64,000 nt of DNA, from positions 495,909 through 559,908 of the forward strand of contig CAYUSP010000001.1 of the NCBI GenBank assembly GCA_964447405.1, given 5' to 3'. This DNA comes from an uncultured Nitrospiraceae bacterium (lineage in GTDB: Bacteria > Nitrospirota > UBA9217). The number at the start of each line of letters is the position of its first letter. The stretch's first letter is position 1. The translations under genes were made by a program, and so were the position numbers. The notes beneath the pieces are model-generated. The model saw nothing but the letters and a program-made list of their open reading frames with translations, was not told the DNA's origin and did not search any database. This document shows positions 11,257 through 40,037 of this stretch, piece after piece.

Positions 11257-12423
11257 GTGATGCAGAATTCAAATCAAAGGTTGCCGTATTTCATCCATCT
11301 TTCACTCGTGCTGGTGCTTGTCATACCAGGTGCGTGCTCCAAGAGCAAGCAACCGCCTCCCAGGACCGTACCCGTGATCGCGGAAATTGCCGATCAAAGG
11401 AACATCCCGCTCCAGCTTAAGGTCATCGGCAATGTTGAACCGTTTAATGCCGTCACGGTAAAAGCCCTGGTTGGAGGTGAGATCGCAGGAGTTTATTTTA
11501 AGGAAGGGCAGGAGGTCAGGAAAGAAGCGCTCCTGTTCAAGATAGATCCGCGGCCCTACGAAGCCGCTCTCAAGCAGGCTGAAGCCTCTCTTGCGCGGGA
11601 TGTCGCACAGGCAAGGAACGCGGAGGAACAGGCCAAGCGATACGCCATTCTGGTGCAGAAGGATTATGTATCCAAGGACCAGTATGACCAGCTTCGCGCC
11701 AATGCCGATGCCCTCCTGGCCGTGGTTGAGGCTGACAAAGCCAATGTCGAGAACAGCCGGCTTCTGCTTGCCTATTGCACGATCAAGTCTCCGATCAACG
11801 GACGGGCCGGAAGCGTACTGGTCAATGCCGGTAACGTGATCAAAGCGAATGATATCGCGCTGACGACGATCAACCAGATGGTGCCGATTTACGTGACTTT
11901 TTCCATACCCGAGCAAAGCCTTGCGGATATAAAGAAATATACAGCGCAGGGCGAACTGAAGGTAGCCGCGATTATACCCGGGGATGAAAAAAGACCCGCG
12001 CTGGGCGATCTGACTTTTATCGACAATACCGTAGACAAGACCACGGGCACGATCAAGCTAAAGGGTACCTTTGCCAACGAGGATCGGAGGCTCTGGCCGG
12101 GTCAGTTCGTTGACGTCGTTCTGACGCTCACCACAGAACGGAACCGGGTAGTTGTTCCGTCACAGGCTGTGCAGACGGGCCAGCAGGGTCAATACGTCTA
12201 TGTGATAAAGGATGATATGAGCACGGATCTTCGTGTTGTTACCGTGGAGAGGGCATATGAAGGTTTTGCCGTCATCGGAAAGGGTATTGCAGCAGGCGAA
12301 AAGGTGGTAACCGATGGACAACTGCGTCTCGTGGCGGGGGCGAAGGTAGAGATCAAGAACTCAAAACCGGGGGAAGAGAAGACGGAAAAAAAACCGGAGC
12401 CAAAAGAAGAAACAAAGAAATAG
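11257..12423 (+). CDS. Efflux RND periplasmic adaptor (MFP, AcrA/MexA family) lipoprotein
   Basis: The lipobox is PGAC. It has MFP coiled-coil and beta-barrel regions and a Lys/Glu-rich C-terminal tail. Confidence 0.85.
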   Translation: MMQNSNQRLPYFIHLSLVLVLVIPGACSKSKQPPPRTVPVIAEIADQRNIPLQLKVIGNVEPFNAVTVKALVGGEIAGVYFKEGQEVRKEALLFKIDPRPYEAALKQAEASLARDVAQARNAEEQAKRYAILVQKDYVSKDQYDQLRANADALLAVVEADKANVENSRLLLAYCTIKSPINGRAGSVLVNAGNVIKANDIALTTINQMVPIYVTFSIPEQSLADIKKYTAQGELKVAAIIPGDEKRPALGDLTFIDNTVDKTTGTIKLKGTFANEDRRLWPGQFVDVVLTLTTERNRVVVPSQAVQTGQQGQYVYVIKDDMSTDLRVVTVERAYEGFAVIGKGIAAGEKVVTDGQLRLVAGAKVEIKNSKPGEEKTEKKPEPKEETKK

Positions 12424-12461: not shown

Positions 12462-15400
12462 ATGAATATCTCTGAACTATTTATCCGCCGTCCGGTCATG
12501 ACCACCCTGGTCATGCTCTCGATCCTGTTTGTCGGTATAGCCGGGTATCGTCAATTGCCTGTAAGCGACCTTCCTAACGTTGACTTTCCCACGATCCTGG
12601 TGTCGGCAAACGTTCCGGGAGCAAGCCCGGAGACAATGGCTTCTGCCGTTGCAACACCCCTTGAAAAGCAGTTCTCGACCATTGCTGGCATTGATTCCAT
12701 GACCTCGGCAAATGCGCAGGGTCTTACGACGATCACCATACAGTTTACACTGAGTCGCAGCATTGATGCCGCTGCCCAGGATGTGCAGGCTGCCATTGCA
12801 GCAGCAGCGCGTCAATTGCCGCAGGACATGCCGAGCCCGCCATCCTACCGCAAGGTTAATCCGGCTGACTCGCCAGTGCTCTATATGGCGCTCAGTTCCC
12901 CGACGTTGCCGCTTTCAAAAGTAGATGACTTCGCCCAGACCCTGATCGCCCAGCGTGTCTCCATGGTCAGCGGCGTTGCACAAGTGCAGGTCTACGGGTC
13001 CCAGAAATATGCAGTAAGGGCGCAGCTGAATCCTCGCGCCATGGCATCACGCGGCATCGGTATAGATGAAGTGGCAACTGCGGTTGCCCGCGCGAACGTG
13101 AATCTGCCCACCGGGACGCTCTACGGCGCCAATCAAGCCTTTACCGTTCAGGCCACAGGCCAACTCAATGATGCTGAAGCCTATCGTCCGATCATCGTGG
13201 CATACCGGGGCGGTTCACCGGTCCGCCTTCAGGAGCTTGGCCGGGTTATTGACAGCGTGGAAAATGACAAGGTAGCAAGCTGGTATCGCGATACTCGCGC
13301 CATCATCCTCGCGGTCCAGCGCCAGCCGGGCACGAATACGGTTGAGGTCGTTGATTCCATCAAGAAGCTCATACCGACGTTCAAGGAGCAGATGCCGGCA
13401 TCGGTAAAACTTGATATCCTGTTTGACCGGTCCATCTCCATTCGGGATTCGGTCGAGGATGTGAAATTCACCTTGTTCCTCACCGTTTGTCTCGTTGTCA
13501 TGGTCATTTTCCTGTTCCTCAGAAACCTCTCCGCTACGGTCATTCCCAGTTTGGCGCTTCCCATGTCCATTGTGGGGACGTTTGCCGTCATGTATCTGTG
13601 CGATTACAGCCTGGACAACATGTCGCTCATGGCGCTTACTCTTTCTGTCGGATTCGTAGTTGACGACGCCATTGTGATGCTCGAAAACATAATCCGTCAT
13701 ATGGAGATGGGAGAGACGGTCATGGAAGCCGCGCTCAAGGGGTCCAAAGAGATCGGCTTTACGATCCTTTCCATGACCATCTCGCTCGTGGCTGTCTTTC
13801 TTCCCGTGTTCTTCATGCCCGGCATCATCGGCCGACTCTTGCATGAATTCGCGGTAACCATTGGCATGTCCATTCTGATATCTGGTTTTGTCGCACTCAC
13901 GCTCACGCCCATGCTCGCGAGCCGTTTTATCAGGCCCCATGGCGGTGAACAGCACGGCAAGCTGTACCATGCATCGGAACGGTTCTTTGCCAGAATGCTC
14001 GCATTTTATGAACGGACGTTGACCTTTGTGCTCAGGCATCCAAAGGCCACCATGGCCGCTTCCGGGGTCATCCTTGCGGGCACCGTTGTCCTGTTCATGA
14101 TCATGCCAACCGGATTTCTGCCCAGCGAGGATACGGGGCAGTTGTTCATCGTCACGGAGACGGCGCAGGGAACGTCGTTCGACTCCATGAAACAACACCA
14201 GCTGGCACTATCAGACATCGTCATTAAGGATCCGAACGTCGACGGCTACATGTCGAGCATTGGCGCGGGTGGTGCGAACTCTTCAGGCAATCAGGGGCGT
14301 TTTTTTATCCGTCTCAAACCGCGCTCTGAACGCGATCTGCATGTCGACCAGGTAATCCAGAAATTGCGGCCCAAGCTGTCACAGGTGCCGGGTATCATGG
14401 CATTTCCGCAAAACCCGCCGCCAATCCGCATCGGTGGTACGCTCACCAAAAGTCTCTACCAGCTCACCCTCCAGAGTCCCAATACGGATGAGCTCTACGA
14501 ATACGCCCCAAAGCTCGAGGCAAAACTCCGCAATCTATCTCAGCTCCAGGACGTAACGAGCGATCTTCAGATCAAGAATCCGCAGGTGAATGTCGAAATA
14601 GACCGCGACAGGGCGTCGGCGCTCGGCATAACAGCCACGCAGGTTGAGGGGGCTCTCCAGACTGCATACAGCCAGCAGCAGATATCGACCATTTATGCGC
14701 CGACCAATCAATACCGGGTCATCATGGAGTTGGAGCCGCTGTATCAACGTGACCCCAATTCTCTCTCCCTGCTTTACATCCGGTCGTCAGCAGGCCCCTT
14801 AGTGCCGATCAGTGCTGTCTCGAAACTTTCCCAGAGTCTGGGGCCCTTATCCGTGAATCACCTGGGCCAATTGCCAGCGGTCACCCTGTCGTTTAACACG
14901 CGGCCTGACGTGTCCCTGGGCACTGCGGTTGATGCGGTGAACAAGGCTGCCCGACAAACGCTGCCGGCATCCATTACCACGAGTTTCCAGGGGACTGCCC
15001 AGGCATTCCAGTCGTCGATGCAGGGACTGGGGATACTCCTTATCGCAGCAACCATCGTTATCTATATCGTGCTCGGTATCTTGTACGAAAGCTTCATTCA
15101 TCCGTTCACGATCCTGTCAGCGCTGCCCTTCGCCGGCTTCGGCGCGCTTGTGACGCTCATGATCTTTGGATCCGATCTGAACGTCTATGCTTTTGTGGGA
15201 ATCATCCTCCTGGTGGGCTTGGTGAAAAAGAACGGCATCATGATGGTCGACTTTGCCCTCGATGCCCAGCGCAAAGAGGCAGCAGCACCAAAGGATGCCA
15301 TCTACAAGGCCTGTATTATACGGTTCCGTCCCATTATGATGACCACCATGGCCGCACTGCTTGGTACGCTTCCCATAGCCCTTGGTTTCGGTGCTGGTGC

Positions 15401-15569
15401 AGAATCACGACGTCCTCTCGGCCTTGCTGTGGTAGGAGGTCTCCTTTTCTCGCAAACATTAACCCTTTACGTTACCCCTGTTGTGTATCTGTATATGGAT
15501 CGGCTCCAAAGGAAGCTTGACCGATTGAAGATATTCCAGATACGGAAAAAAGTGATATCAATCGAGTAA
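12462..15569 (+). CDS. RND multidrug efflux transporter permease (AcrB/HAE1 family)
   Basis: 1035 aa, 12-TM architecture, with the conserved GFVVDDAIVMLENI motif. Confidence 0.9.
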   Translation: MNISELFIRRPVMTTLVMLSILFVGIAGYRQLPVSDLPNVDFPTILVSANVPGASPETMASAVATPLEKQFSTIAGIDSMTSANAQGLTTITIQFTLSRSIDAAAQDVQAAIAAAARQLPQDMPSPPSYRKVNPADSPVLYMALSSPTLPLSKVDDFAQTLIAQRVSMVSGVAQVQVYGSQKYAVRAQLNPRAMASRGIGIDEVATAVARANVNLPTGTLYGANQAFTVQATGQLNDAEAYRPIIVAYRGGSPVRLQELGRVIDSVENDKVASWYRDTRAIILAVQRQPGTNTVEVVDSIKKLIPTFKEQMPASVKLDILFDRSISIRDSVEDVKFTLFLTVCLVVMVIFLFLRNLSATVIPSLALPMSIVGTFAVMYLCDYSLDNMSLMALTLSVGFVVDDAIVMLENIIRHMEMGETVMEAALKGSKEIGFTILSMTISLVAVFLPVFFMPGIIGRLLHEFAVTIGMSILISGFVALTLTPMLASRFIRPHGGEQHGKLYHASERFFARMLAFYERTLTFVLRHPKATMAASGVILAGTVVLFMIMPTGFLPSEDTGQLFIVTETAQGTSFDSMKQHQLALSDIVIKDPNVDGYMSSIGAGGANSSGNQGRFFIRLKPRSERDLHVDQVIQKLRPKLSQVPGIMAFPQNPPPIRIGGTLTKSLYQLTLQSPNTDELYEYAPKLEAKLRNLSQLQDVTSDLQIKNPQVNVEIDRDRASALGITATQVEGALQTAYSQQQISTIYAPTNQYRVIMELEPLYQRDPNSLSLLYIRSSAGPLVPISAVSKLSQSLGPLSVNHLGQLPAVTLSFNTRPDVSLGTAVDAVNKAARQTLPASITTSFQGTAQAFQSSMQGLGILLIAATIVIYIVLGILYESFIHPFTILSALPFAGFGALVTLMIFGSDLNVYAFVGIILLVGLVKKNGIMMVDFALDAQRKEAAAPKDAIYKACIIRFRPIMMTTMAALLGTLPIALGFGAGAESRRPLGLAVVGGLLFSQTLTLYVTPVVYLYMDRLQRKLDRLKIFQIRKKVISIE

Positions 15570-15629: not shown

Positions 15630-16832
15630 GTGATGCGTTCCGGCAGAGACAAATGCAGCGTGGTACAACGGAAACCGAGGACGGCACAGCGTGTGATCAA
15701 GGTACTCATCCTGGCAATGGTGCTGTTCAGTTGCAAAGGCGATGGCCCCGCATTCAGGACCGAGCCAATAACGCGCGGCGATGTTCAGCAGACCGTAACC
15801 GCAACAGGAACGGTCAATGCCGTGACCACGGTACTGGTCGGCACGCAGGTTTCGGGCACGATCAAGAGTCTCTTCGTGGATTTTAATTCACGCGTCACAA
15901 AAGGTCAGCTCATTGCTTTAATCGATCCTGAGATGTTTGAGGCGCAGGTTGCCCAGGCAAAGGCGAACGTGGAAAAAGCCGAAGCGACCTTCCGTGACGC
16001 GGACCGGTCGATCACCAGAAACCGGGAATTGTTCTCAAGAAACCTTGTTCCCCGAAGCGATCTCGATACCGCTGAGACGAACTTTGACAGCGCCAAGGCG
16101 CAGGTGGAGCAGGCAAAGGCGGCTCTCAGGGTGGCGGACACGAATCTCCGCTATACGCGCATCCTGTCGCCGGTGGACGGCGTCGTCATCTCCCGGAACG
16201 TGGACATCGGCCAGACCGTTGCAGCCAGTTTTCAGACCCCGACCCTGTTTACGATCGCGCAGGATCTGACCAAGATGCAGCTCAACACGAATATCGCCGA
16301 GTCGGACATCGGCATCGTCAAGGTTGGGCAGGATGTCGAGTTCACGGTCGATGCTTATCCTGATACGATATTCAAGGGAAAGGTCTGGCAAAAGCGGCAG
16401 GCCCCGATCACGGTGCAGAACGTTGTGACCTACGATGTCGTCATCAAGGTCGACAACAGCGACCTGCGTTTGATGCCGGGTATGACCGCCAATGTCTCGA
16501 TCATCATAACTATACGGAACAACGTGCTCAGGATATCGAATACCGCACTGCGATTTAAAATGATTGACAAGCCGGCCGGAGCTTCAGGTGGTAATACCGG
16601 TTCCACCGGCGAGGCAAACAAACGCGGAGGCCCGAGCGCTGAAAAAAAGGGTCCGGCCGTATGGGTCCTTGAAGACGGAAAACCGAAGCGCATGGCCATA
16701 GAATCGGGCATTAGTGACGGAAATTATACCGAGGTCGTATCCGGCGACCTGAAAGAGGGGAACCAGGTCATTATCGAATCCTTAAAGAAGAACAAACCTC
16801 AACAGGCGCCGTCAGGTCCGAGGATGTTCTAA
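15630..16832 (+). CDS. MacA-like periplasmic adaptor (HlyD/MFP family)
   Basis: It has a TM anchor or signal, coiled-coil and beta-barrel regions, and directly precedes the MacB-type ABC genes. Confidence 0.8.
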   Translation: MMRSGRDKCSVVQRKPRTAQRVIKVLILAMVLFSCKGDGPAFRTEPITRGDVQQTVTATGTVNAVTTVLVGTQVSGTIKSLFVDFNSRVTKGQLIALIDPEMFEAQVAQAKANVEKAEATFRDADRSITRNRELFSRNLVPRSDLDTAETNFDSAKAQVEQAKAALRVADTNLRYTRILSPVDGVVISRNVDIGQTVAASFQTPTLFTIAQDLTKMQLNTNIAESDIGIVKVGQDVEFTVDAYPDTIFKGKVWQKRQAPITVQNVVTYDVVIKVDNSDLRLMPGMTANVSIIITIRNNVLRISNTALRFKMIDKPAGASGGNTGSTGEANKRGGPSAEKKGPAVWVLEDGKPKRMAIESGISDGNYTEVVSGDLKEGNQVIIESLKKNKPQQAPSGPRMF

Positions 16833-16833
16833 G

Positions 16834-17526
16834 ATGACGCTCATTGAAGCACGGAACCTAAGTAAGGTCTATAGTCTTGGTGATGTGGACGTGCGCGCAT
16901 TGGACGGAATCTCCACGACCATCGATAAAGGCGAGTTCGTCGCGATCATGGGGCAGTCCGGTTCGGGCAAGTCGACCTTCATGAACATGCTTGGCTGCCT
17001 GGATACGCCCACGGGCGGTCACTATCTCCTTGACGGTGTTGATACCAGCGGCCTGTCGCGTGACGATCTGGCGGAGATACGGAACAAGAAACTCGGTTTC
17101 GTGTTTCAGGGTTTTAATCTCCTGTCGCGCACGTCAGCCGTGGAGAACGTGGAGCTGCCTCTGCTGTACGATGGTTCGCCCGCGAAGGAGCGAAGGGTGC
17201 GGGCGCGGGCCGCTCTCAAGAGCGTCGGACTCGAGGGGAGGGAGGGGCATCATCCCAACCAGCTTTCCGGCGGTCAGCAGCAGCGCGTTGCCATCGCACG
17301 CGCGCTGGTGAACGATGCGCCCATCATCCTAGCCGATGAACCAACGGGGAACCTCGACACGAAGACCAGTGTCGAAATCATGGAACTACTCGTTAAGCTC
17401 AATCGCGATTCGAACATAACGGTCATCCTGGTGACCCATGAATCGGATATAGCGTCTTTCAGCAAGAGGATCATCCGGTTCTCGGACGGCCGCATCGTCA
17501 GCGATAAACCGGTAAACAAACCATGA
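16834..17526 (+). CDS. ABC transporter ATP-binding protein (MacB/LolD family)
   Basis: GQSGSGKST, LSGGQQQRVAIARAL and [11 protein letters not shown] are present. Confidence 0.9.
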   Translation: MTLIEARNLSKVYSLGDVDVRALDGISTTIDKGEFVAIMGQSGSGKSTFMNMLGCLDTPTGGHYLLDGVDTSGLSRDDLAEIRNKKLGFVFQGFNLLSRTSAVENVELPLLYDGSPAKERRVRARAALKSVGLEGREGHHPNQLSGGQQQRVAIARALVNDAPIILADEPTGNLDTKTSVEIMELLVKLNRDSNITVILVTHESDIASFSKRIIRFSDGRIVSDKPVNKP

Positions 17527-18752
17527 TCAATATTCCATCCACCTTCAAGATATCCTTCCGCGCACTGCGGGTGAACAAGATGCGTTCCGCCCTTACCATG
17601 CTCGGCATCATCATCGGCGTCGGCGCCGTGATCGCCATGGTCGCCGTGGGTACGGGAGCAAGCCAGAAGATCGCCGAGCAGATCTCCAGCATGGGCAGCA
17701 ACCTGCTGATTATTCTTCCCGGTGCAACGACCGCTGGTGGCGTTCGCATGGGCGCAGGAACGCAGCCTACGCTCAGCATGGGCGATGCAGAAGCGATCAT
17801 CCGGGAATGCCCTGCGGTATCGGATGCGGCTCCTATCCACAACGGTGTTGCACAGGTGGTCTTTGGCCATATGAACTGGTCAACGGGAGTCATCGGCACG
17901 ACCCCGTCCCTGCTTATCGTTCGGGAATGGGACCTTACGGCAGGAAGGTCGTTCACTACACAGGACGTAAAAAGTGCTACGAAAGTAGCCATGCTCGGAC
18001 AGACCGTGGTGGACAATCTATTTGGGGAACAAAATCCCGTGGGACAATCGATCAGGATCAAGAACGTCCCTTTCACCGTGATCGGTGTTCTCGGGAAAAA
18101 AGGGCAGAATGCCCAGGGTCAGGACCAGGATGATACGATCATGATACCGGTGACCACGGCGCAGAAGAAGCTCTTCGGGACCCAGTTCCCGGGCATGGTG
18201 CGGATCATCACCGTCAAAGCCAGGAGCGCCGAAGATCTTGCCGGGGCTGAACGTCAGATCAATGAACTTCTCCGGCAGCGGCACCGGATCGGCCCAAAAC
18301 AGGACAATGACTTCACGGTCAGGAACCTCACGCAGATCATGCAGGCTGCGGAGGCGTCAACGAAAGTGATGACCATGCTGCTTGGGGCCATCGCTTCGGT
18401 CTCGCTCCTCGTCGGCGGGATCGGCATTATGAACATCATGCTCGTGTCGGTCACCGAACGTACCCGCGAGATCGGGATCCGCATGGCCATCGGCGCCAAG
18501 ACGTGGGACATCCGGCTCCAGTTCATAATTGAAGCGCTCACCTTGTCGCTGATCGGGGGGGTCGTCGGCATCATTATCGGAGTATCCGCATCCATCGTCC
18601 TTTCCTCGATCTCGGGCTGGCCAACCGTAGTATCAGGTCTCTCGATTGTTCTGGCTTTTGGTTTCTCCGGCTTCATCGGAATCTTTTTCGGTTTCTACCC
18701 CGCGTACAAAGCCTCGCTCCTGAATCCGATCGACGCACTCAGATATGAATAG
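17523..18752 (+). CDS. ABC transporter permease, FtsX/MacB family
   Basis: An N-terminal TM helix, a large periplasmic domain, then 3 C-terminal TM helices with the ERTREIGIRMAIGA motif. Confidence 0.85.
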   Translation: MINIPSTFKISFRALRVNKMRSALTMLGIIIGVGAVIAMVAVGTGASQKIAEQISSMGSNLLIILPGATTAGGVRMGAGTQPTLSMGDAEAIIRECPAVSDAAPIHNGVAQVVFGHMNWSTGVIGTTPSLLIVREWDLTAGRSFTTQDVKSATKVAMLGQTVVDNLFGEQNPVGQSIRIKNVPFTVIGVLGKKGQNAQGQDQDDTIMIPVTTAQKKLFGTQFPGMVRIITVKARSAEDLAGAERQINELLRQRHRIGPKQDNDFTVRNLTQIMQAAEASTKVMTMLLGAIASVSLLVGGIGIMNIMLVSVTERTREIGIRMAIGAKTWDIRLQFIIEALTLSLIGGVVGIIIGVSASIVLSSISGWPTVVSGLSIVLAFGFSGFIGIFFGFYPAYKASLLNPIDALRYE

Positions 18753-18801
18753 TCATTGCTTGACATCAGTGCTTCGCTGGTTTATTCTGCGTACCATCAT
18801 G

Positions 18802-20055
18802 ATCAAGGCTCTGTTCATCTCATTTTGCATTCTTGCGGGGACGTCGCTCCCTGCCTACAGTGCCTCAACCATACAGGTGGTGTCTGCTGATGAAGGCACG
18901 TTCGTCATCCAGGGGGTCGACCTTGATGGCGCAGCAGCATTCGATCTTACCCTGACCTATGATACGACTGCGCTTGCCAATCCCCAGGTAACACAGGGAG
19001 AGCTGGTTGCGGGCGCCATGATGGCCGTAAACCCGAACATTGCGGGGACGATCCGGATGGCGCTCATCCGCACAACGCCAGTCACAGGCACTGGGCTGAT
19101 AGCGACCATCCGGTTTGAAAGAAGAAATAATTCACCGGGCAAATTATTTACCTTCCAGGCAAAACTCGCAAATATCAATGGGAAGTCGATCCCGGTTGTA
19201 ACCCGTGTCATCAATCCTTCTGAAAACACGCCAGGCACCCAACACCAAGAACAAAACATTCATCAAGGAAGCACGACTTCTTCGGGAACTCCCGTTGTTC
19301 AGCCGCTGGCGCCCCCAGGTTTCCTGACCAGTGTCACGGTACCCGCTCCATCACCTGATCAGAAGGAAAAGACCCCTTCTGCTGAACGTGCGGCTGACGT
19401 TCCGCGCGATTCACCTGAAGTATCCGGGGATGTGAAAACTGCGCTTCAAAAAAAGAACGATGCTCTTTCAGCACATGATCAGGAAAAGAAGATCTATACT
19501 CAGGACAGCGTGCTGGAACGATTCCGGTCATTCCTGGGGGAAAAGAGCATCCATTCTTATACCGGCCTGTTCGATCTTGAATCACTGATTGGATTCAGAC
19601 AGGACCCGGGCATTGCCTTGTCCGACGGGAAAACAGCGGTCAGGGTGACCTTTTTGTCCCTGTCAACGGTGCACGCAGCGCCTGATGTCGCGTTAATAAG
19701 CGCACGTCTGGTCTCCCTGAATAAAGATGCGGATAACTCGAACACCTGGATCGCAGAGATTATTCCGGACCGCGGCACTCCAGCAGCCAACCTTGCCGTG
19801 GCACAGGGGACAATGAACATGGTTTACCCCCTTACGGTGGCGCCTAAGATTAACATCGATCTCGATGGGTCAGGCATGGTCAATGAAGCGGATTTTACCC
19901 TTTTTCTCGGGGATCGGGGCACACTAGCCAAGCCTCTATTCGATCTGAACAAAGACGGGAAAAGGGATCAGCTTGACGACTATATTTTCACCGCGAACTT
20001 CCTTGCCTCCACTGCAAAGCAGCTGACGCAGGAAAAGTCCAAGAAGGTCCAGTAG
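18802..20055 (+). CDS. Secreted protein with an N-terminal cohesin-like domain and a C-terminal type-I dockerin (two Ca-binding F-hand repeats)
   Basis: Signal peptide MIKALFISFCILAGTSLPAYSAS. The beta-rich N-terminal domain fits a cohesin pattern. The dockerin repeats are DLDGSGMVNEAD and DLNKDGKRDQLD. An alternative start at 18745 would overlap the upstream stop. Confidence 0.55.
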   Translation: MKALFISFCILAGTSLPAYSASTIQVVSADEGTFVIQGVDLDGAAAFDLTLTYDTTALANPQVTQGELVAGAMMAVNPNIAGTIRMALIRTTPVTGTGLIATIRFERRNNSPGKLFTFQAKLANINGKSIPVVTRVINPSENTPGTQHQEQNIHQGSTTSSGTPVVQPLAPPGFLTSVTVPAPSPDQKEKTPSAERAADVPRDSPEVSGDVKTALQKKNDALSAHDQEKKIYTQDSVLERFRSFLGEKSIHSYTGLFDLESLIGFRQDPGIALSDGKTAVRVTFLSLSTVHAAPDVALISARLVSLNKDADNSNTWIAEIIPDRGTPAANLAVAQGTMNMVYPLTVAPKINIDLDGSGMVNEADFTLFLGDRGTLAKPLFDLNKDGKRDQLDDYIFTANFLASTAKQLTQEKSKKVQ

Positions 20056-30361: not shown

Positions 30362-30375
30362 ACGAGGGGGTGCCG

Positions 30376-30834
30376 ATGAAAATCCATGATTCAGCAGTTA
30401 TCGCGGTGATGTGTTTAGTGCTGGCTACCCAGGCATTTGCAGCAGGTCCAGACGACATCCTTGGAATCTGGAACAATCAGGAAAAGGAGGCAAAGATCGA
30501 GGTTTACCGATGCGGTCAGAAGTACTGCGGCAAGATCATTTGGCTCAGGATGCCCGACTATCCGGCAGGCTCGGTGGAGGGTGCACCCGGAACGCCCAAA
30601 CTCGACAATAATAATCCCGATCCGAATCTCAGGAGCAAACCGCGTCTGGGTCTGGAAATAGTATACGGATTCGCCTATGCGGGAGAGAACAGGTGGACAG
30701 ATGGCAAAGTCTATGACCCGAAGAGTGGAAAAACATACAGCGGAAAGATGACGCTGGTTTCTCCGGAACAATTGGATTTGCGCGGTTATATGGGGATATC
30801 ATTGTTAGGCAGGACCACCTCGTGGACAAGATAA
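30376..30834 (+). CDS. DUF2147 family periplasmic protein
   Basis: Signal peptide plus ILGIWNNQEKEAKIEVYRCGQKYCGKIIWL, which is typical of DUF2147. Confidence 0.6.
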   Translation: MKIHDSAVIAVMCLVLATQAFAAGPDDILGIWNNQEKEAKIEVYRCGQKYCGKIIWLRMPDYPAGSVEGAPGTPKLDNNNPDPNLRSKPRLGLEIVYGFAYAGENRWTDGKVYDPKSGKTYSGKMTLVSPEQLDLRGYMGISLLGRTTSWTR

Positions 30835-32774: not shown

Positions 32775-33485
32775 ATGCCGATTTCCAGAAAGAAGAAAGA
32801 TGTTGCAAAACACAATCATGAACAGGGAATCGAAACGATTATGCACAGAATCACCGACTTATTAACCCGCTATCAGAAGCAGGCTGCAGCGGTTGCGGCA
32901 GTTGTTGTTGTCCTACTGCTTGTCATCGCTGTCACCACCTACATGCGGTCACAGAACGAACGGAGTGCTGCGCCGATGGTCGCGGTGGCATACGAGGTCT
33001 ACAGCCCCGGCAACCAATCAGCACCGGATTATGGCAGAGCGCTGGGCATGTTCCGGGAAGTTCAAAAGAAGTACGCTGGCACCATGAGTGCAGCGATTGC
33101 TCAGTATTACGCCGGAAATTGCCTCGCAAACGCCGGTCGGAATGAAGAAGCACTCAAAGAATATCAGGCATTCACCAACGAATATTTCAAGGAAAAGTTC
33201 CTGCTCGGGCTGGTATACCAGCGAATGGGGGCACTGTATCAAGTCATGGGACGGCAGCAGGATGCGATCAAGACATACGAAATGTCAGAAGCTCTCATGG
33301 GTCCTGGGATCGCGACTGTGGAGATAGCGCGGTTGTACGAGAGTGCCGGGAACCTGGTGGATTCCAAACAGAAATACAAAACTGTGCAGGAAAAACTTGG
33401 AGGCACTGCATGGAGTAGGGAGGCCATGGGCAAAGTGCAGCTTCTTGCACCTGCGCCAGGCAGCAAAGAAGGTTCTGCGAAATAA
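32775..33485 (+). CDS. Membrane-anchored tetratricopeptide-like repeat protein
   Basis: An N-terminal TM helix with TPR-like helical repeats. It overlaps the next gene by 1 nt (TAATG). Confidence 0.55.
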   Translation: MPISRKKKDVAKHNHEQGIETIMHRITDLLTRYQKQAAAVAAVVVVLLLVIAVTTYMRSQNERSAAPMVAVAYEVYSPGNQSAPDYGRALGMFREVQKKYAGTMSAAIAQYYAGNCLANAGRNEEALKEYQAFTNEYFKEKFLLGLVYQRMGALYQVMGRQQDAIKTYEMSEALMGPGIATVEIARLYESAGNLVDSKQKYKTVQEKLGGTAWSREAMGKVQLLAPAPGSKEGSAK

Positions 33486-33955
33486 TGCTGCGTACAGCAA
33501 CGAAGCATGATAATACCATCACTGCAGTGTGCCTGATCATTTCGCTATTGTCCTTTTTGCTCACTGCTGGAGGATGCTCATCAGGCATTCCGAAGATAGA
33601 GGTCCAGGAACCGGAAGCCTGGATTTCACCGCTTATTATCGGTTCAGGATCCATATTCATGAAGATCGAAAATTCGGGAGACGGCAAGGATACGCTGATT
33701 GGCGCGGAACTGGATGTGCCCGGCTCACTGGTGGAACTTCATGACGTAGATGACCGGAAAATGATCAAAACCGACAGTATCACGGTCCCGGCAAAAAACA
33801 TCGTGCATTTGAGGCCTGCGGGCGTGCATATCATGGTCTTCAAACTGCCTAAAGAGTTGATAGGCGGCCGTCCCTGTACCTTGACCCTGATGTTCGCAAA
33901 GTCAGGAAGAATCAGCGTCCCCCTGCAGTTTAAAAGTAATGCAATTAACCGTTAA
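33485..33955 (+). CDS. Copper chaperone PCu(A)C (DUF461) family lipoprotein
   Basis: Lipobox LTAGGC, plus the MKIENSGD…LVELHDV…GVHIMVFKL pattern with the H..M Cu ligands of PCuAC. Confidence 0.65.
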   Translation: MLRTATKHDNTITAVCLIISLLSFLLTAGGCSSGIPKIEVQEPEAWISPLIIGSGSIFMKIENSGDGKDTLIGAELDVPGSLVELHDVDDRKMIKTDSITVPAKNIVHLRPAGVHIMVFKLPKELIGGRPCTLTLMFAKSGRISVPLQFKSNAINR

Positions 33956-34159
33956 AAAGAGGCTGGTATTAAACATCTAAAGTTATAATTTGGTGTTGAC
34001 GCGGACAAAAGCATGTGTTAGTTTACTTCACCTTCTAAAAGATAAATACCCTTTTTATAAAAGGAGGTGGTTCGAAAAAAGCACTTAGAATCAGAGCCGC
34101 ATATTTTAGAGTTCCATTGGGTTTAATTCCATTAACGATAAAGAACGGGGAGGAATGGC

Positions 34160-35308
34160 ATGATGAGAAAATTTGCATTGATCGCAGTAGTGATTATTGT
34201 AGTCTGCTTCACTTATTTGAGCTTTACCGCGGTTGACACCAGGACGCAGACTGCTGTTGCATCCGGCAATACCTACAGCGGAACCGTGTATGTTGCAGGG
34301 ATGGGCGGCCACTTTGCCAAGGCTGATGTAACAATTGACCCTAGCAATGCGAACGAGCCGGTGAAGGTGAACAGCCTTGATAAGGTTGATATCGGTGACA
34401 AAAAGACGCATCCGACCCATGATGCACGCATAGATTCCAATGATCCTAACATATTGTTCTGGTCAACGTATGTTCTTGACCCGAACAACAAGCAGCATGT
34501 AGGCAAGACCGATCTCAAAACCGGCAAAGTGATCAAGGACGTCGCAATGAGCCCGGATGCAAGCGCTCCCGGCACGAAGCCCCCGATCTATTGCGCTTCC
34601 GGCCAGAGCAAAAACTTTTATATGCCCGTGTTTATGGGCATGGAAGGTTACATTGATGTGTTTGATAAAGCCACACTTACCCATAAGGAAAGGGCATGGG
34701 TCAGTGATCTTGGCTACGAAAAAGGAACCTACAAGTTCACGCACGGTATCAACTCTCCGGACATGAAGACCTTCCTCGTGGTTCTGAACCAGGCCAAGGA
34801 CGGCAAAGGCAACGGCAACATTGATTTCATTCTTGTGGATATGGCATCGCTGGAAAAAGGGAAACTGAAGAAAATCGCAAAGGCCACCTTGAAGGGCGAG
34901 CCGGATAAGACTATCACCTTCCGCCAGTATTTCTCCAATGATGGCACCAAGATATTCCAGTCAGCGGGCGACCGCCTCTGGGTACTTGATGCAAAGACCC
35001 TTGCTCTTATCGACGAGAAGATGCTGCCAGCAGGAAACCAGATCCATGATGCACAGCCGACCGCTGATGACAAGTTCGCGCTCCTGACCGTACGCACGGT
35101 CACGGCGGGCTGCGATGCGGATGGCAAGGCGATCGTAAAAGAAGGCAAGGGCGTTGACATCACCGATGGCACGTTTATGCTGTATGATATTACCGCGAAG
35201 ACGCTGAACGACAAATCCACCTCGACCTGCCTGGCCTGCCACAAGAACATGGGGCTTGGCGACAAGAACGCAGTCCTCTGCGGTCTTGACACCAACTGGA
35301 AGAAGTAG
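34160..35308 (+). CDS. Periplasmic/secreted beta-rich (propeller-like) protein with a C-terminal monohaem CxxCH motif (CLACHKNM)
   Basis: It has a signal anchor, one CxxCH about 25 aa from the C-terminus, and a GGGGAGGAA Shine-Dalgarno sequence. It belongs to no family I can name. Confidence 0.6.
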   Translation: MMRKFALIAVVIIVVCFTYLSFTAVDTRTQTAVASGNTYSGTVYVAGMGGHFAKADVTIDPSNANEPVKVNSLDKVDIGDKKTHPTHDARIDSNDPNILFWSTYVLDPNNKQHVGKTDLKTGKVIKDVAMSPDASAPGTKPPIYCASGQSKNFYMPVFMGMEGYIDVFDKATLTHKERAWVSDLGYEKGTYKFTHGINSPDMKTFLVVLNQAKDGKGNGNIDFILVDMASLEKGKLKKIAKATLKGEPDKTITFRQYFSNDGTKIFQSAGDRLWVLDAKTLALIDEKMLPAGNQIHDAQPTADDKFALLTVRTVTAGCDADGKAIVKEGKGVDITDGTFMLYDITAKTLNDKSTSTCLACHKNMGLGDKNAVLCGLDTNWKK

Positions 35309-35336
35309 TAATCTGAAATCAAAGAATGAACTAACA

Positions 35337-35375
35337 AACCTTCTCTGCGGGGCTTCCCGTGGAGAAGGTTTTTTT
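35337..35375 (+). terminator. Rho-independent terminator after the 34160 gene
   Basis: aaccttctc…gagaaggtt stem followed by ttttt. Confidence 0.65.
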
Positions 35376-35392
35376 ATGCTATTATAATAATC

Positions 35393-36589
35393 ATGGCTGA
35401 TCAATTTACCCTTTCTTCAATGGCAATCAGGAATTTGCGCAGACGTCCTCTGCGCACGGGCATACTGATCGCTGCCCTGTCCCTGATGGTGGCGGCGCTC
35501 GTATTTGCCCTTTCGTTCGTTTTGCGGGTAAATGCCAGCATTCAGCTGACCTCAGACCGTCTCGGCGCCGACCTCCTTATTGTGCCGACAGGCGCGCGGG
35601 GAGCAGCTGAGGATATCCTGGTCGAGAACCGCGCCACTTCGTTTTACATGAACAAGTCCTTCCTGGACCGGATCGGGAAGGTAAAGGGCATTGAAAAGGT
35701 TTCCGCGCAAACCTATCTTGTCACCTTGACGGGTTTGTGCTGTTCTGTTCCTTCATCCATGGTGGTTGCCTTTGATCAGGATACCGACTTTATCGTGACC
35801 CCATGGCTCAAGAACAAACTGGGGAGAAAACTCAAGAAAGGCGAGGCAGTCGTTGGCAGCGAGTCTGCTTACAACATCAGCCTGGGGCTTGTGGATGTGG
35901 AAGGCATGCTGTTCGGCAGCGTGTTCAAAATGGTTGGCGTACTCGACAAAACAGGGTCAGGGCTGGACACTGCTGTGTTCGTCAGCGACGAAAATATCCG
36001 TGAACTCATCGATAACAGCAAAGCGGACATCAAGCCCGATCAGATTTCGGTGATCTTTGCGAAAATCGGCAAGGGTGTGGACGCTTACAAGGTCATGTCG
36101 GATATAGAAGGCACGATGATCGAAGTTGATGTCGTCATGCGCAAAGACATCGGCAAAAGCCTGCTCACCACGCTGGAAGATATCAGAAAAATCTTCTACC
36201 TCACCATGGCGCTCGCGACTCTGCTTTCCCTGTTTCTTGTCTGGGCTATTTTTACCGCCATCGCGAATGAACGGACCCGTGAAGTGGGCATCATGCGAGC
36301 GCTCGGAGCAAAGGAAAGGCATGTGGTAAGCCTCTTTCTGTTCGAGGTCCTGGTGCTGGGAGCGATCGGGAGTATCGTGGGGATTCTTGCCGGAACATCG
36401 CTGACGTTCTTGATGGCTAAGAGCTTCTCGATACTGAAAAACCTTCCGGTTGACCTGAGTCTGACAGCTCGCATCGTCATTTCCCTGTCCGGTCTGCTCT
36501 TTGGTACTGGTATCTGCGTCCTGGGAGCTCTTTCCCCGGTACAAAGACTTAAGAAACTGGAGCCGTTGCTAGTTCTCAAACAGGAGTGA
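35393..36589 (+). CDS. ABC transporter permease, FtsX/MacB/LolCE family
   Basis: One N-terminal TM helix, a large periplasmic domain, then 3 C-terminal TM helices with ANERTREVGIMRALGA. Confidence 0.85.
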   Translation: MADQFTLSSMAIRNLRRRPLRTGILIAALSLMVAALVFALSFVLRVNASIQLTSDRLGADLLIVPTGARGAAEDILVENRATSFYMNKSFLDRIGKVKGIEKVSAQTYLVTLTGLCCSVPSSMVVAFDQDTDFIVTPWLKNKLGRKLKKGEAVVGSESAYNISLGLVDVEGMLFGSVFKMVGVLDKTGSGLDTAVFVSDENIRELIDNSKADIKPDQISVIFAKIGKGVDAYKVMSDIEGTMIEVDVVMRKDIGKSLLTTLEDIRKIFYLTMALATLLSLFLVWAIFTAIANERTREVGIMRALGAKERHVVSLFLFEVLVLGAIGSIVGILAGTSLTFLMAKSFSILKNLPVDLSLTARIVISLSGLLFGTGICVLGALSPVQRLKKLEPLLVLKQE

Positions 36590-36592
36590 TAC

Positions 36593-37273
36593 GTGTCCCG
36601 TATAGCACTGAACGCTGTGACCAAAACCTATAGTGTCGGAGACCAAATCATCCGCGCGGTCAGTGATGTGACCCTGGAGATCAATAAGGGTGATTTTATC
36701 TCCATTGTCGGGCATTCTGGTTCTGGAAAAACGACGCTGCTCTCCATGATCGGAGGCATCACCAGCCCGTCGTCTGGATCGATATTGTTTGATGGCGTGG
36801 ACCTCTCCGCGCTCGGGAGCGACCAGCTTTCCGAATACCGCAGCCGCAAGATAGGCTTCATGTTCCAGTTTGCCAGCCTGCTTCCCATGCTGACAGTCCA
36901 GGAAAATCTTATGCTTCCAACGGCATTCACGGAACAGCCCGAGTTGCTGGAAAAGGCAGGGGAAAAGGCGGCTGAACTCCTGAAACTGGTTGGCCTGGCT
37001 GATAAGATCGGCCACTTCCCCCCTCAACTCTCCGGCGGCCAGCAGCGGCGCGTGGCCATAGCTCGCGCATTCATCAATGATCCCGTTATAATTCTGGCGG
37101 ATGAGCCGACCGGCGATCTGGATGAGGATACGGAAATGGACATGATGAATTTTATAAAGACCATGAACAATGCATATCAGACAACGTTCATCATGGTCAC
37201 TCATAATACCGATCTCGCAAAAAAGGCGCAGCGCAGGCTTCGGATGACGCAGGGTCTGCTTCAGGAACAGTAA
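36593..37273 (+). CDS. ABC transporter ATP-binding protein (LolD/MacB-like)
   Basis: [24 protein letters not shown] and [11 protein letters not shown] are present. Confidence 0.9.
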
Positions 37274-37436: not shown

Positions 37437-40037
37437 ATGAGAAAAAATAACCAGGAACAAAGGATCATCCACTATTCGATCGCTGGCGGTCTGCTGTTTT
37501 GGGTAATCGACGCCTTCATGGATTCTGCCGTCTTCAGAAGTGGTTCCTTTCTGGATTCACTTATCCTGAAACCCTCCGCGCATGAGCTGTATTTTCGCAT
37601 ACTCTTCTTCGTCGGTTTTGTCGCATTCGGGATCGTTGTATCAAGAATCATGGCGAAGCGCCGACAGGTTGAGGAACGGTATGAGAATCTCGTTGAATTA
37701 TCCGCGGACATAATATATATCGCTGGCACAGACGGGAAAATACAGTATTTGAACGATGCCGGATGCCGCACTCTTGGATTGAAGACTGATGAGGCAGCAG
37801 GAAAACCGTTGCTTGACGTTATTCACCCCGATGACAGACAGCGAGCTGCAGAACAGTTGACCAGAATGCTCGCAGACGGAAAAGACTCATTCAACTGTGA
37901 AAAGAGATTTGTCAGCAAAACCGGAGCAACCTTTAGTGTATTAGGCAGTATCCGCGTGCTCAGGGATGCTATGGGGGTGGTCATCGGTACGCAGAGTATT
38001 TGTCGGGATGTAACCGAACAGAAACGGAGCGAGGAACTGCTGCAAAAGGCACTCCATCTTTCGGAAAACGAAAAAGCCCGGTCAATGTCCATTCTGTCCG
38101 CGATCGGCGACGGTATTAGTATTCAAAACACTGACTTTAAAATCGTGTATCAGAATCAGATCCATAAAAAACTGAGCAGTGGAGACTGTCTTGGTCAAAC
38201 GTGTTATCAGGCGTATGCGCATAGAGAGGATGTTTGCCCCGAATGTCCCGTGGCCGAGTCGTTCAAAGATGGGGAGATCCATACTCATCAAAAGATCATT
38301 CAGACCAACGGAGAAACGCGCGTACTCGAAATCAAAGCTTCACCCTTAAGGGATGCCGATGGGACGATAGTGGCGGGCATTGAGGCTGTCCGCGACATCA
38401 CTGCCCGTAAAAAAGCGGATGAAAAACTGAAGCTGTTTTCCGAGGCGATTGAAGCGGCTACGGACGGAATTCAGATTGTTGATCTGGATGGGGCAATTGT
38501 TTATTCCAACAAGGCGGTTCATGCTATTTACGGTTATTCACCGGAAGAACTTGCGGGGCGGCATGTCAATGACATGAACGTGGACAAGGAATTCGCCGGG
38601 CGGGTCATTCTTCCCGCCATCCAGGATACCGGGCATTGGAACGGTGAATTGACCGTCATTCACAAGGAGGGGAAGACCTTCCCCATATGGCTTTCAACGT
38701 CCATGGTCAGGGACGATACCGGATCACCCATCGCCATGATCGGGATTATCCGGGACGTTTCCGAACGGAAACAGGCAGAGGACATACTCAAACGCCACCA
38801 TGAACAGCTCATGAGGCTCGTCGAAGAGCGTACGCGTGAGCTTTCGACTGCTAATGAAAAGCTCCGTAGAGAAATCGCGGACCGTGAAAAGATGGAAACG
38901 GAGCTGCTGAAAGCACAGAAACTCGAATCGCTCGGCATTCTCGCCGGCGGCATTGCGCACGATTTCAATAATCTGCTCGCCGCGATCATGGGGAACATTT
39001 CCCTTGCAATGCTGGATCTGAACCCGGAGGCGGGAGTGTACGGTCAATTGGAGGCTGCTGAAAAAGCATCTCTCCGGGCGCAGGACCTGACACAGCAACT
39101 GCTGACTTTTTCCAAGGGGGGTTCACCGGTCAAAAAAACCCTATCCGTCAAGGACCTGATTGAGGAGGCAGCCGCATTTGCCCTCAGAGGCTCGCGGGTA
39201 AGCTATGATTTTCATTTCGATGAGCAGCTCTGGCGGGTCGAAGCTGATTTCGGGCAAATCAGCCAGGTCATTCATAACCTCGTCATCAATGCTGACCACG
39301 CCATGCCCGAGGGCGGCATGATAATGATTACCTGCGAGAATTCGACAATTACGGACTCCACGGGAATTCCGCTGCGGCTTGGCGATTATGTGAAGATCAG
39401 CGTGCAGGACCATGGTGTCGGGATTACCAAGGAACACCTTGCGAAGATTTTCGATCCCTATTTCACCACAAAGCAAAAGGGTAGCGGCCTCGGTCTGGCA
39501 ACATGCTACTCCATTATCAGGAAGCATGGAGGTCATATATCCGCCGTTTCAGAACTGGGGAAGAGCACTACCTTCACGCTCTATCTACCCGCATCAATGA
39601 AGCGGGAAATGCCGGAAAAAAAGACTGAGGGAATGCAGCTAAGGACCGGCACGGGGAAGATCCTGCTTATGGACGACGAGCAGAATGTGCGCCAGACAAC
39701 AGGTGCAGTGCTTGCGCGGCTCGGGTATACCGTTGAATTCGCGGAGGATGGCGTACAGGCTATTGAACACTATCAGCATGCGCGTGAAGCCGGCGCTCCC
39801 TTTGACGCAGTCATCATGGACCTTACCATTCCGGGAGGAATGGGAGGGAAAGATGCTGTGCAAAAGCTGCTTCAGATTGATCCGGACCTCAAGGCGATCG
39901 TATCGAGCGGCTATTCAAATGATCCTATCATGGCGGAATACAGCAAGTATGGTTTTCGCGGTGTTGTTGCCAAACCCTACCGGATCAATGATCTGGGAGA
40001 AACATTGCAGAAGGTGCTGCGGAAAAGTCCTGTTTAA
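37437..40037 (+). CDS. Hybrid sensor histidine kinase/response regulator with multiple PAS domains
   Basis: An N-terminal TM region, 3-4 PAS domains, H-box AHDFNNLL, an HATPase domain and a C-terminal REC domain (MDLTIPGG). Confidence 0.85.
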   Translation: MRKNNQEQRIIHYSIAGGLLFWVIDAFMDSAVFRSGSFLDSLILKPSAHELYFRILFFVGFVAFGIVVSRIMAKRRQVEERYENLVELSADIIYIAGTDGKIQYLNDAGCRTLGLKTDEAAGKPLLDVIHPDDRQRAAEQLTRMLADGKDSFNCEKRFVSKTGATFSVLGSIRVLRDAMGVVIGTQSICRDVTEQKRSEELLQKALHLSENEKARSMSILSAIGDGISIQNTDFKIVYQNQIHKKLSSGDCLGQTCYQAYAHREDVCPECPVAESFKDGEIHTHQKIIQTNGETRVLEIKASPLRDADGTIVAGIEAVRDITARKKADEKLKLFSEAIEAATDGIQIVDLDGAIVYSNKAVHAIYGYSPEELAGRHVNDMNVDKEFAGRVILPAIQDTGHWNGELTVIHKEGKTFPIWLSTSMVRDDTGSPIAMIGIIRDVSERKQAEDILKRHHEQLMRLVEERTRELSTANEKLRREIADREKMETELLKAQKLESLGILAGGIAHDFNNLLAAIMGNISLAMLDLNPEAGVYGQLEAAEKASLRAQDLTQQLLTFSKGGSPVKKTLSVKDLIEEAAAFALRGSRVSYDFHFDEQLWRVEADFGQISQVIHNLVINADHAMPEGGMIMITCENSTITDSTGIPLRLGDYVKISVQDHGVGITKEHLAKIFDPYFTTKQKGSGLGLATCYSIIRKHGGHISAVSELGKSTTFTLYLPASMKREMPEKKTEGMQLRTGTGKILLMDDEQNVRQTTGAVLARLGYTVEFAEDGVQAIEHYQHAREAGAPFDAVIMDLTIPGGMGGKDAVQKLLQIDPDLKAIVSSGYSNDPIMAEYSKYGFRGVVAKPYRINDLGETLQKVLRKSPV

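Follow-up and report, generated by a model that had tools for sequence, protein, structure and literature searches.

NosZ is a periplasmic propeller redox protein whose inner strands start with hub histidines, and some of its forms bear a C-terminal haem-c domain. It comes with a lipoprotein Cu(I) chaperone and with a dedicated ATP-binding cassette (ABC) ATPase and permease encoded downstream. Type VII ABC systems, among them MacAB-TolC, LolCDE, FtsEX-EnvC and HrtBA, combine an FtsX-family permease, a periplasmic MacB_PCD domain and a separate ATPase, and they act on periplasmic or outer-leaflet partners instead of moving solutes across the membrane. Thiocyanate dehydrogenase (TcDH; PDB 5F75, 8Q9X and others) is a copper-dependent periplasmic propeller that oxidizes sulfane sulfur and passes the electrons to cytochrome c, and TcDH loci contain copper-transport genes (PMC6504805). 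NosL is the chaperone for the copper centres of NosZ (PMC6530538, PMC8457098), while PcuC, ScoI and TlpA form an established periplasmic toolkit that loads the Cys2His2Met CuA site (PMC6669012). Here we describe a locus in a 64,000-nucleotide stretch of DNA from an uncultured Nitrospiraceae bacterium (contig CAYUSP010000001.1 of assembly GCA_964447405.1, positions 495,909 to 559,908; hereafter the window), in which a gene for a PCu(A)C-family (PCuAC) copper chaperone is followed by a gene for a 382-residue protein with a CXXCH motif (protein X) and by genes for an FtsX-type permease and its ATPase. We find that the last three genes form a conserved unit, and we tentatively favour the view, while stopping short of calling it probable, that X is a periplasmic haem-c/copper redox enzyme assembled or serviced by a dedicated ABC module, and thus an analogue, not a homologue, of NosZ with NosDFY and NosL.

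We compared 82 non-redundant loci from species-representative genomes and 86 loci from metagenomes and look-ups, limiting adjacency counts to loci with at least 1.5 kb of downstream sequence. An FtsX gene lay directly after X in 113 of 133 loci (63 of 72 from genomes and 50 of 61 from metagenomes), with the ATPase gene next. The order of the three genes held despite wholly different flanks, as between loci L001 and L003, and spanned Nitrospirota, Desulfobulbales, Caldimicrobium and Anaeromyxobacter; its recurrence is therefore more than chance. The few X genes that lacked the ABC pair were second copies in some genomes (L027 beside L026, L036 beside L044). PCuAC was present in 34 of the 82 genome loci and lay directly upstream of X in 28 of the 73 with enough upstream sequence. 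The conserved core is thus X-FtsX-ABC and not PCuAC-X. A first-pass annotation of the window had linked X with both the chaperone and the ABC genes; the link with the ABC genes held strongly across genomes, whereas PCuAC did not prove to be part of the core.

The hosts of X are mainly uncultured Nitrospirota, including Thermodesulfovibrionales, Ca. Sulfobium, a bin from a Mn-oxidizer enrichment and a Nitrospira enrichment bin that carries two copies of X. Further hosts are Desulfurivibrionaceae, Desulfobulbaceae, Caldimicrobium and Anaeromyxobacter, and isolates with X include Desulfurivibrio dismutans AMeS2 and two Desulfurivibrio sp. strains. Many of these hosts are sulfur-cycling taxa. In total, X was found in at least 185 species-level genomes, a lower bound that comes from a pattern-based scan.

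Protein X had no match in Pfam, NCBIfam or the PDB sequences. When 25 diverse relatives were scanned singly, we obtained faint propeller-repeat matches only, and no match to nos_propeller even at E ≤ 10. The family comprises at least 1106 clusters at 90% identity, of which the best 120 are 65 to 85% identical to X, and a family profile recovered just 130 proteins among 1.84 billion representatives at 50% identity. Named members are all annotated as hypothetical, and a literature search on the topic found no paper on the family. Judged by these sequence searches, X is the founding member of a large but self-contained and undescribed family, in agreement with the first-pass annotation, which had placed the protein outside known families.

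An AlphaFold2 model of X built from a 28-sequence alignment reached a predicted local distance difference test (pLDDT) score of 85.1 and a predicted TM-score (pTM) of 0.82. In the model a helix (residues 2 to 23) and a disordered linker precede six four-stranded blades (Table 1), the first of which is closed by the C-terminal strand, and the CXXCH motif sits on the loop that enters this closing strand. The protein had earlier been described as secreted, beta-rich and propeller-like with a single haem-c motif, CLACHKNM, a description that the model and the one CXXCH bear out. The hydrophobic N-terminal helix is of the Sec type and carries no twin-arginine motif; lipoboxes are frequent in distant members of the family, and a twin-arginine motif occurs in none of them. 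The family would therefore be exported through Sec, with any cofactor inserted in the periplasm.

We aligned 299 distinct full-length members, 18 to 100% identical to X (median 62%), and determined which residues are kept. Within the CXXCH motif Cys357 and His361 are conserved in 100% and Cys360 in 99.7% of the members. Outside it, the near-invariant residues are His296 (99.7%), Arg255 and Arg312 (both 99.3%), His195 (99.0%), Cys374 (98.7%), Cys145 (98.3%), His51 and Met159 (both 97.7%) and His87 (96.7%, the remainder being mostly gaps). Distant members have variants of the haem motif, CX3CH in P0163 and CX4CH in P0202, or additional CXXCH motifs (P0157 and P0170). These variants, the extra motifs and the pattern of one motif per domain are typical of the way haem-c sites behave, and the CXXCH of X is probably a covalent haem-c site placed above the hub face of the propeller. 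Other residues were kept less well. Cys318 is lineage specific (58%), and His113, although present in 94.6% of members overall, is replaced by Arg, Trp, Ser or Gln in distant ones, and we rejected it as a conserved ligand. We likewise rejected a reading of CXXCH-K-N-M as a CuA-like loop, because Met364 is conserved in 50% only and the spacing is unlike that of the CuA loop.

Several distant members depart from the layout of X. Among P0121, P0122, P0125 to P0127, P0130, P0154, P0196 and P0202 we observed fusions to caspase (Peptidase_C14), fn3 or Big_2 domains, and others in this set consist of tandem X domains with one CXXCH per domain. Both Cys145 and Cys374 are lost in P0121 and P0152.

The strand order of the model places His87, Cys145, His195, Arg255 and His296 at or near the start of the innermost strands of blades 2 to 6, and Cys374-Gly375 directly before the closing strand. 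Since three N-terminal strands supply the other three strands of blade 1, the closing strand would be its innermost one. His51 and Met159 appear to lie in B-C loops that open on the same face of the propeller, and the CXXCH loop would run from the outer strand of blade 6 across that face to the hub and the closing strand of blade 1, so that the near-invariant residues would gather on one face. If this arrangement is right, His87, His195 and His296 (blades 2, 4 and 6) and Cys374, Cys145 and Arg255 (blades 1, 3 and 5) would ring the axis beneath the covalent haem. X would thereby offer two Cys, four His and one Met, all near-invariant, where the CuA site uses Cys2His2Met. There is no cupredoxin fold and no C-X3-C-X3-H-X2-M loop as in CuA proteins, and a copper site in X would sit on the propeller hub. 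We infer that X may bind copper.

The permease matched FtsX with 74.1 bits and MacB_PCD marginally (E 2.6e-6, 28.3 bits against a cut-off of 27). The ATPase matched ABC_tran with 122.9 bits and has intact Walker A (GHSGSGKTT), signature (LSGGQQ) and Walker B (ILADEPT) motifs. With an FtsX C-terminal domain, a periplasmic MacB_PCD domain and a separate ATPase, the pair is assigned by its domain make-up to the MacB/FtsX type VII class. It could not be placed in a named system of that class: all NCBIfam subfamily scores of the permease were well under cut-off (lolCE 36.8 against 362.45), and the ATPase, although LolD-like, scored 231.2 bits against a LolD cut-off of 307.75. These scores and the missing HlyD partner ruled out LolCDE, FtsEX and MacAB as identities. 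No HlyD adaptor or outer-membrane factor was found at the window locus or at related loci. Elsewhere in the window, at 15630-18752, there is a canonical HlyD-ABC-MacB set with a MacB_PCD match of E 2.6e-54, which shows how far the X-linked permease has diverged and that it has no adaptor protein.

What sets the X-linked permease apart is a vicinal pair, Cys116-Cys117 (nucleotides 35738-35743), in its divergent periplasmic domain. The pair is present in 100% of 61 X-linked permeases and absent from the other, NosL-linked, FtsX paralogues of the same loci. The last transmembrane segment, too, has a conserved residue, Cys375 (97%). X, with its one N-terminal helix, is positioned like the partner of a type VII system, although the invariant Cys-Cys pair and the divergent periplasmic domain are unique to this module, and we know of no precedent for a propeller haemoprotein as the partner of such a system. 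The spacer between the X and permease genes holds an intrinsic-terminator-like hairpin at 35336-35371, with a 16-bp stem including 8 G-C pairs, followed by a T-run. A stable structure (minimum free energy of -20 kcal/mol or lower, in a spacer of about 90 nt) was predicted at this place in 56 of 61 related loci. The hairpin is likely to attenuate expression of the ABC genes or to stabilize the 3' end of the X transcript, and its conservation fits an abundant enzyme with less-expressed accessory genes.

The chaperone encoded upstream of X in the window is probably a lipoprotein anchored via Cys31. Its Cu(I) ligands His86, Met93, His115 and Met117 are present with the exact M-X21-H-X-M spacing, the first ligand being separated by X6 instead of the usual X10, and these four residues are conserved in 97 to 100% of 35 X-linked PCuACs. 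In some metagenome loci the PCuAC gene lies downstream of the ATPase gene instead. Other lineages have other copper-handling neighbours. NosL (E 1.5e-30) occurs near X in 15 of the 82 genome loci, whereas tblastn detected no NosL in the window. An HMA/CopZ-type protein of 76 residues (E 4e-12) occurs in 23 of 86 loci overall, in 16 metagenome loci with its gene immediately ahead of that for X; L087 has SCO1/SenC within its X operon, and L085 has a CusF-like gene. At least one of PCuAC, NosL and HMA was found in 53 of 78 loci with wide flanks, and TlpA-like lipoprotein redoxins (AhpC/TSA-Redoxin, E 1.9e-27) in 19 loci. PCuAC, Sco1/SenC and TlpA-like redoxins, the components of the CuA toolkit, thus occur near X in a mixture that varies by lineage, and the copper link that the first-pass annotation drew from the chaperone extends to unrelated chaperone families elsewhere.

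Two further observations concern these neighbours. The usual setting of NosL is a convergent operon, FtsX-ABC-NosL-FtrD-like/DUF2318 (E 4.3e-25), about 3 to 6 kb downstream of X on the opposite strand (L031, L033, L039, L041, L044, L049, L051 and L072). It adjoins X in at least 12 loci and is a second, uncharacterized MacB-type system linked to a copper chaperone. In about 21 of the 82 genome loci (L033, L039, L044, L049, L055 to L057, L066, L072, L073 and others), the place directly upstream of X that PCuAC takes in the window is occupied by a conserved protein of about 90 residues, which begins MTKKIAVIVRDRQAEALRMAVGLTLGE... and has no Pfam match.

Genes for redox proteins also accompany the module. 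A five-haem cytochrome gene directly follows the ATPase gene in 8 loci, and in 4 loci a gene of the tetrahaem c554 type precedes X. The operon of L087, which encodes X, a TPR protein, a pentapeptide-repeat protein, SCO1, two multihaem cytochromes, Fer4_11 and NrfD, looks like a quinone-linked respiratory module. Sulfur genes adjoin X in L085 (cytochrome, rhodanese and Sulf_transp directly upstream) and in L089 (rhodanese directly downstream), and divergent TusA and YeeE/YedE genes lie near X in about 18 Desulfobulbales-type loci. Ferritin- or rubrerythrin-like genes were observed just upstream, on the strand opposite to PCuAC, in L003, L013, L014, L018 and L021, and OsmC-like genes just upstream of the module in L028 and L034; both recur in some Nitrospirota loci and hint at a link with oxidative stress.

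We propose that the unit is a three-gene module of X, permease and ATPase, to which this genome adds an upstream PCuAC Cu(I) chaperone. X would be exported through Sec and, on the outer face of the inner membrane, either stay tethered or be released, and it would fold into a six-bladed propeller with a haem c and a copper site of thiolate and imidazole ligands. In this genome PCuAC would supply the copper, a task that would fall to NosL, Sco1 or HMA/CopZ in other lineages, and TlpA-like reductases would hold the ligand cysteines in the reduced state. Multihaem cytochromes and NrfCD-type quinone modules would be the partners with which the haem exchanges electrons. From the membrane side, the ABC module would spend ATP on assembling or servicing X through its periplasmic domain, the Cys-Cys pair of the permease being a candidate relay point. 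Our leading guess for the substrate is a small inorganic sulfur species (sulfane sulfur, thiosulfate or sulfide), and the next an N- or O-oxide (NO, N2O, O2 or H2O2).

The comparison with NosZ is one of layout. NosZ has seven blades and seven CuZ histidines against six blades and four conserved histidines in X; it has a cupredoxin/CuA domain and a nos_propeller match, both absent from X; and it carries a Tat instead of a Sec signal. The Nos transporter pairs NosY, of the ABC-2 type, with NosD, where the X module has an FtsX/MacB-type permease and, at the window locus, no NosD-like gene. On blade number, histidine count, cupredoxin domain, nos_propeller and ABC type we therefore rejected X as NosZ or as a member of the Nos system. 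The first-pass annotation had seen a resemblance to Nos-type maturation loci and had excluded NosZ itself; the likeness of layout and the exclusion both stand, while membership of the Nos class does not.

In a search of the X profile against the PDB sequences, the matches were non-significant: the beta subunit of hydrazine synthase (HZS) at E 0.0033 and several TcDHs at E 0.026 to 0.083, the best among copper enzymes. The TcDH alignment covers about 60 residues and sets Phe254-Arg255 and His296 of X against 'FH' and 'MH' at the start of two consecutive blades. TcDH has seven blades, is exported through Tat, lacks a CXXCH and relies on a separate cytochrome, whereas X lacks most of the TcDH ligands. 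The HZS subunits and their non-anammox homologues share with X propeller domains and c-type haem but are far larger, with separate haem domains (PMC12758564), and the HZS-beta match consists of two short blade segments. X was not among the homologue classes of that study. Given the different architecture and the weakness of the match, we rejected X as a hydrazine-synthase homologue. In Nitrospirota, the lactonase-type NosZ-like proteins retain a cupredoxin domain together with nosDFLY genes (PMC11033732) and are thus a different family. Cytochrom_D1 matched two of 25 X-family members (best E 0.0029) and Me-amine-dh_H one of 25; X of the window matched neither Pfam profile, and by this test it is neither a d1 domain of cytochrome cd1 nor a propeller of the methylamine dehydrogenase heavy chain.

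Several points weigh against a haem/copper enzyme with its own ABC module. We know of no MacB-type ABC system that matures a metalloenzyme. We read the gathering of conserved residues around the hub from the order of strands in the model, the CXXCH loop has the lowest confidence of the fold (pLDDT 54 to 76), and Foldseek returned generic propellers only (TM 0.4 to 0.5). The four near-invariant propeller histidines are far fewer than in the CuZ or TcDH sites, and Cys145 and Cys374 could form a simple disulfide. About one-third of the wide-flank loci have no copper chaperone within flanks of about 6 to 7 kb, and PCuAC is present in a minority. In the Desulfobulbales loci the sulfur neighbours are transcribed divergently, and their presence may be due to nothing more than common descent. 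Finally, locus counts are swollen by related genomes and are not independent events; our argument rests on the diversity of lineages and arrangements, not on raw counts.

One rival explanation, which we consider improbable, is that the module is a machine for copper trafficking or homeostasis in which X replaces the membrane-fusion protein as the periplasmic adaptor of a MacB-type pump. Such a pump would shift Cu(I) between its chaperones, cytoplasmic HMA and periplasmic PCuAC or NosL, and other cuproenzymes or the exterior, and the haem would tune the redox state of the copper. That four or five copper-handling families adjoin the module agrees with this, as do the NosL operon beside it and the invariant Cys-Cys pair and 97%-conserved Cys375 of the permease; the HMA/CopZ gene directly upstream of X suggests that copper enters from the cytoplasm, and the single N-terminal membrane helix of X resembles that of MacA-type adaptors. 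However, X is conserved as an enzyme would be, at 65 to 85% identity across Nitrospirota and with invariant His, Cys, Arg and Asp residues of active-site character, and operons with NrfD, Fer4 and multihaem cytochromes indicate respiration. The pump would also lack an outer-membrane factor and an HlyD-type partner, and to our knowledge MacB-type systems do not carry ions over the inner membrane.

Rather unlikely, too, is a role in periplasmic sulfur handling, in which the ABC module would extract or present zero-valent sulfur (S8, polysulfide or persulfide) through its Cys-Cys pair, and X would oxidize or reduce it at a Cys-ligated haem or a Cys persulfide in the manner of SoxAX and TsdA, with copper in a secondary role. 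MacB relatives such as LolCDE and HrtBA pull out membrane-embedded substrates, and the hosts of X include sulfur disproportionators and sulfide oxidizers (Desulfurivibrio, Caldimicrobium, Thermodesulfovibrionales and Ca. Sulfobium). The rhodanese and YeeE/YedE genes of L085 and L089 come from two unrelated, distant lineages, TusA and YeeE recur in the Desulfobulbales-type loci, and X has invariant Cys145 and Cys374 beside the haem motif together with invariant Arg255 and Arg312, all of which would suit such chemistry. On the other hand, X also occurs in Nitrospira, in Nitrospirota of the Mn-oxidizer type and in Anaeromyxobacter, copper chaperones are the commonest accessory genes, and the window locus, like most Nitrospirota loci, has no sulfur genes. 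This explanation moreover overlaps with a haem/copper enzyme if the substrate of that enzyme is sulfur.

It is equally doubtful that X is a haem-only electron carrier or peroxidase-like protein with a structural Cys145-Cys374 disulfide, the ABC pair having an unrelated envelope role and the chaperones being there by chance or for other cuproenzymes: CXXCH is the sole cofactor motif legible from the sequence, conserved Cys pairs in the periplasm tend to be disulfides, most loci lack PCuAC, and occasional rubrerythrin/ferritin-like, OsmC and AhpC/TSA-family neighbours hint at an oxidative-stress duty, but several non-homologous families of copper chaperone in varied lineages and positions make chance unlikely, the adjacency of X and FtsX together with the X-specific Cys-Cys pair indicates a functional pair, and four propeller histidines and one methionine kept at 97 to 100% exceed the need of one haem.

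If X is indeed a haem/copper enzyme, its metallocofactor architecture would be new, and should the ABC module turn out to mature or power it, the principle of mechanotransmission known from MacB, LolCDE and FtsEX would reach into redox enzymology, with the module as the first type VII ABC system serving a redox enzyme. New here are a protein family that had not been described and an ABC class so far unconnected with redox enzymes; the general type, in which a chaperone and a dedicated ABC module attend a periplasmic metalloenzyme, is known. A stronger form of the proposal, which we regard as unlikely though worth stating, is that X represents a new class of periplasmic respiratory or detoxifying metalloenzyme, with covalent haem c and a thiolate/imidazole copper site on a six-bladed hub, built or driven with ATP by a MacB-type ABC system, and that it might act on zero-valent or sulfane sulfur in anaerobes that disproportionate sulfur or oxidize sulfide. 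Nitrospirota and Desulfobulbales of the subsurface and of sediments, the carriers of X, drive the turnover of sulfur and nitrogen, and in them the activation of elemental sulfur, the periplasmic handling of NO, N2O and O2 in 'anaerobes' and the supply of copper under sulfide are among the steps still without enzymes. The module is small (three or four genes) and present in cultivated Desulfurivibrio strains, and is directly testable.

In the window, five same-strand genes fill positions 32775-37273 (Table 1). The first-pass calls of PCuAC, of an FtsX-type permease with its ATPase and of a terminator before the permease gene all stand. So does the translational coupling of the TPR and PCuAC genes, which is real: the stop codon of the TPR gene overlaps the ATG start of the PCuAC gene in the sequence TAATG. 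The TPR orthologue in L001 has a weak match to PF09976 TPR_21 (YfgM-type). The gene is restricted to the closest relatives, about 10 of the 82 loci, where it lies within a conserved radical-SAM/PHP block; because it is missing from most loci we rejected it as a member of the system, and it is probably a lineage-specific neighbour from a housekeeping block. A spacer of 204 nt separates the PCuAC and X genes. The C-terminus of X reads ...TSTCLACHKNMGLGDKNAVLCGLDTNWKK, with 21 residues from the CXXCH to the end. An Rfam scan matched no family anywhere in the region, the hairpin included.

Table 1. Features of the X locus (nucleotide positions in the window; blades in residues of X)
Feature	Position	Strand	Remarks
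TPR membrane protein, YfgM-like	32775-33485	+	236 aa, one membrane helix; TPR_6/TPR_2 Pfam matches
PCu(A)C-family periplasmic Cu(I) chaperone	33485-33955	+	PF04314, E 2.5e-19, 69.6 bits against a cut-off of 29.4
Protein X, 382 aa	34160-35308	+	predicted exported or membrane-tethered six-bladed beta-propeller with C-terminal CXXCH loop
CLACH, canonical haem-c attachment motif, X residues 357-361	35228-35242	+	single CXXCH
Blades of protein X	residues 39-77 + 376-380 (blade 1), 86-130, 144-180, 191-245, 254-288, 293-355		AlphaFold2 model
Intrinsic-terminator-like hairpin and T-run	35336-35381	+	between the X and permease genes
FtsX/MacB-type (type VII) ABC permease	35393-36589	+	FtsX, E 1.3e-20; divergent periplasmic domain
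ABC ATPase subunit of the permease	36593-37273	+	ABC_tran, E 1.8e-35; 3-nt gap after the permease gene

Further genes of the window were noted in passing. Upstream of the canonical HlyD-ABC-MacB set lies a resistance-nodulation-division (RND) pump (HlyD at 11257-12423 and AcrB at 12462-15569), and the set is followed at 18745-20055 by a gene for a 436-residue protein with a cohesin-domain match. A DUF2147 protein with a signal peptide (E 2e-38) is encoded at 30370-30834 between AP-endonuclease and radical-SAM genes and is apparently unrelated to the X module. Directly after the ABC ATPase gene, at 37437-40037, lies a gene for a hybrid sensor kinase with at least three PAS domains, HisKA, HATPase and a receiver domain. 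L010 and L063 have a similar kinase gene 3' of the module, and the Desulfurivibrio loci L077 and L081 have one on the opposite strand; the kinase of the window may be a regulator of the X module.

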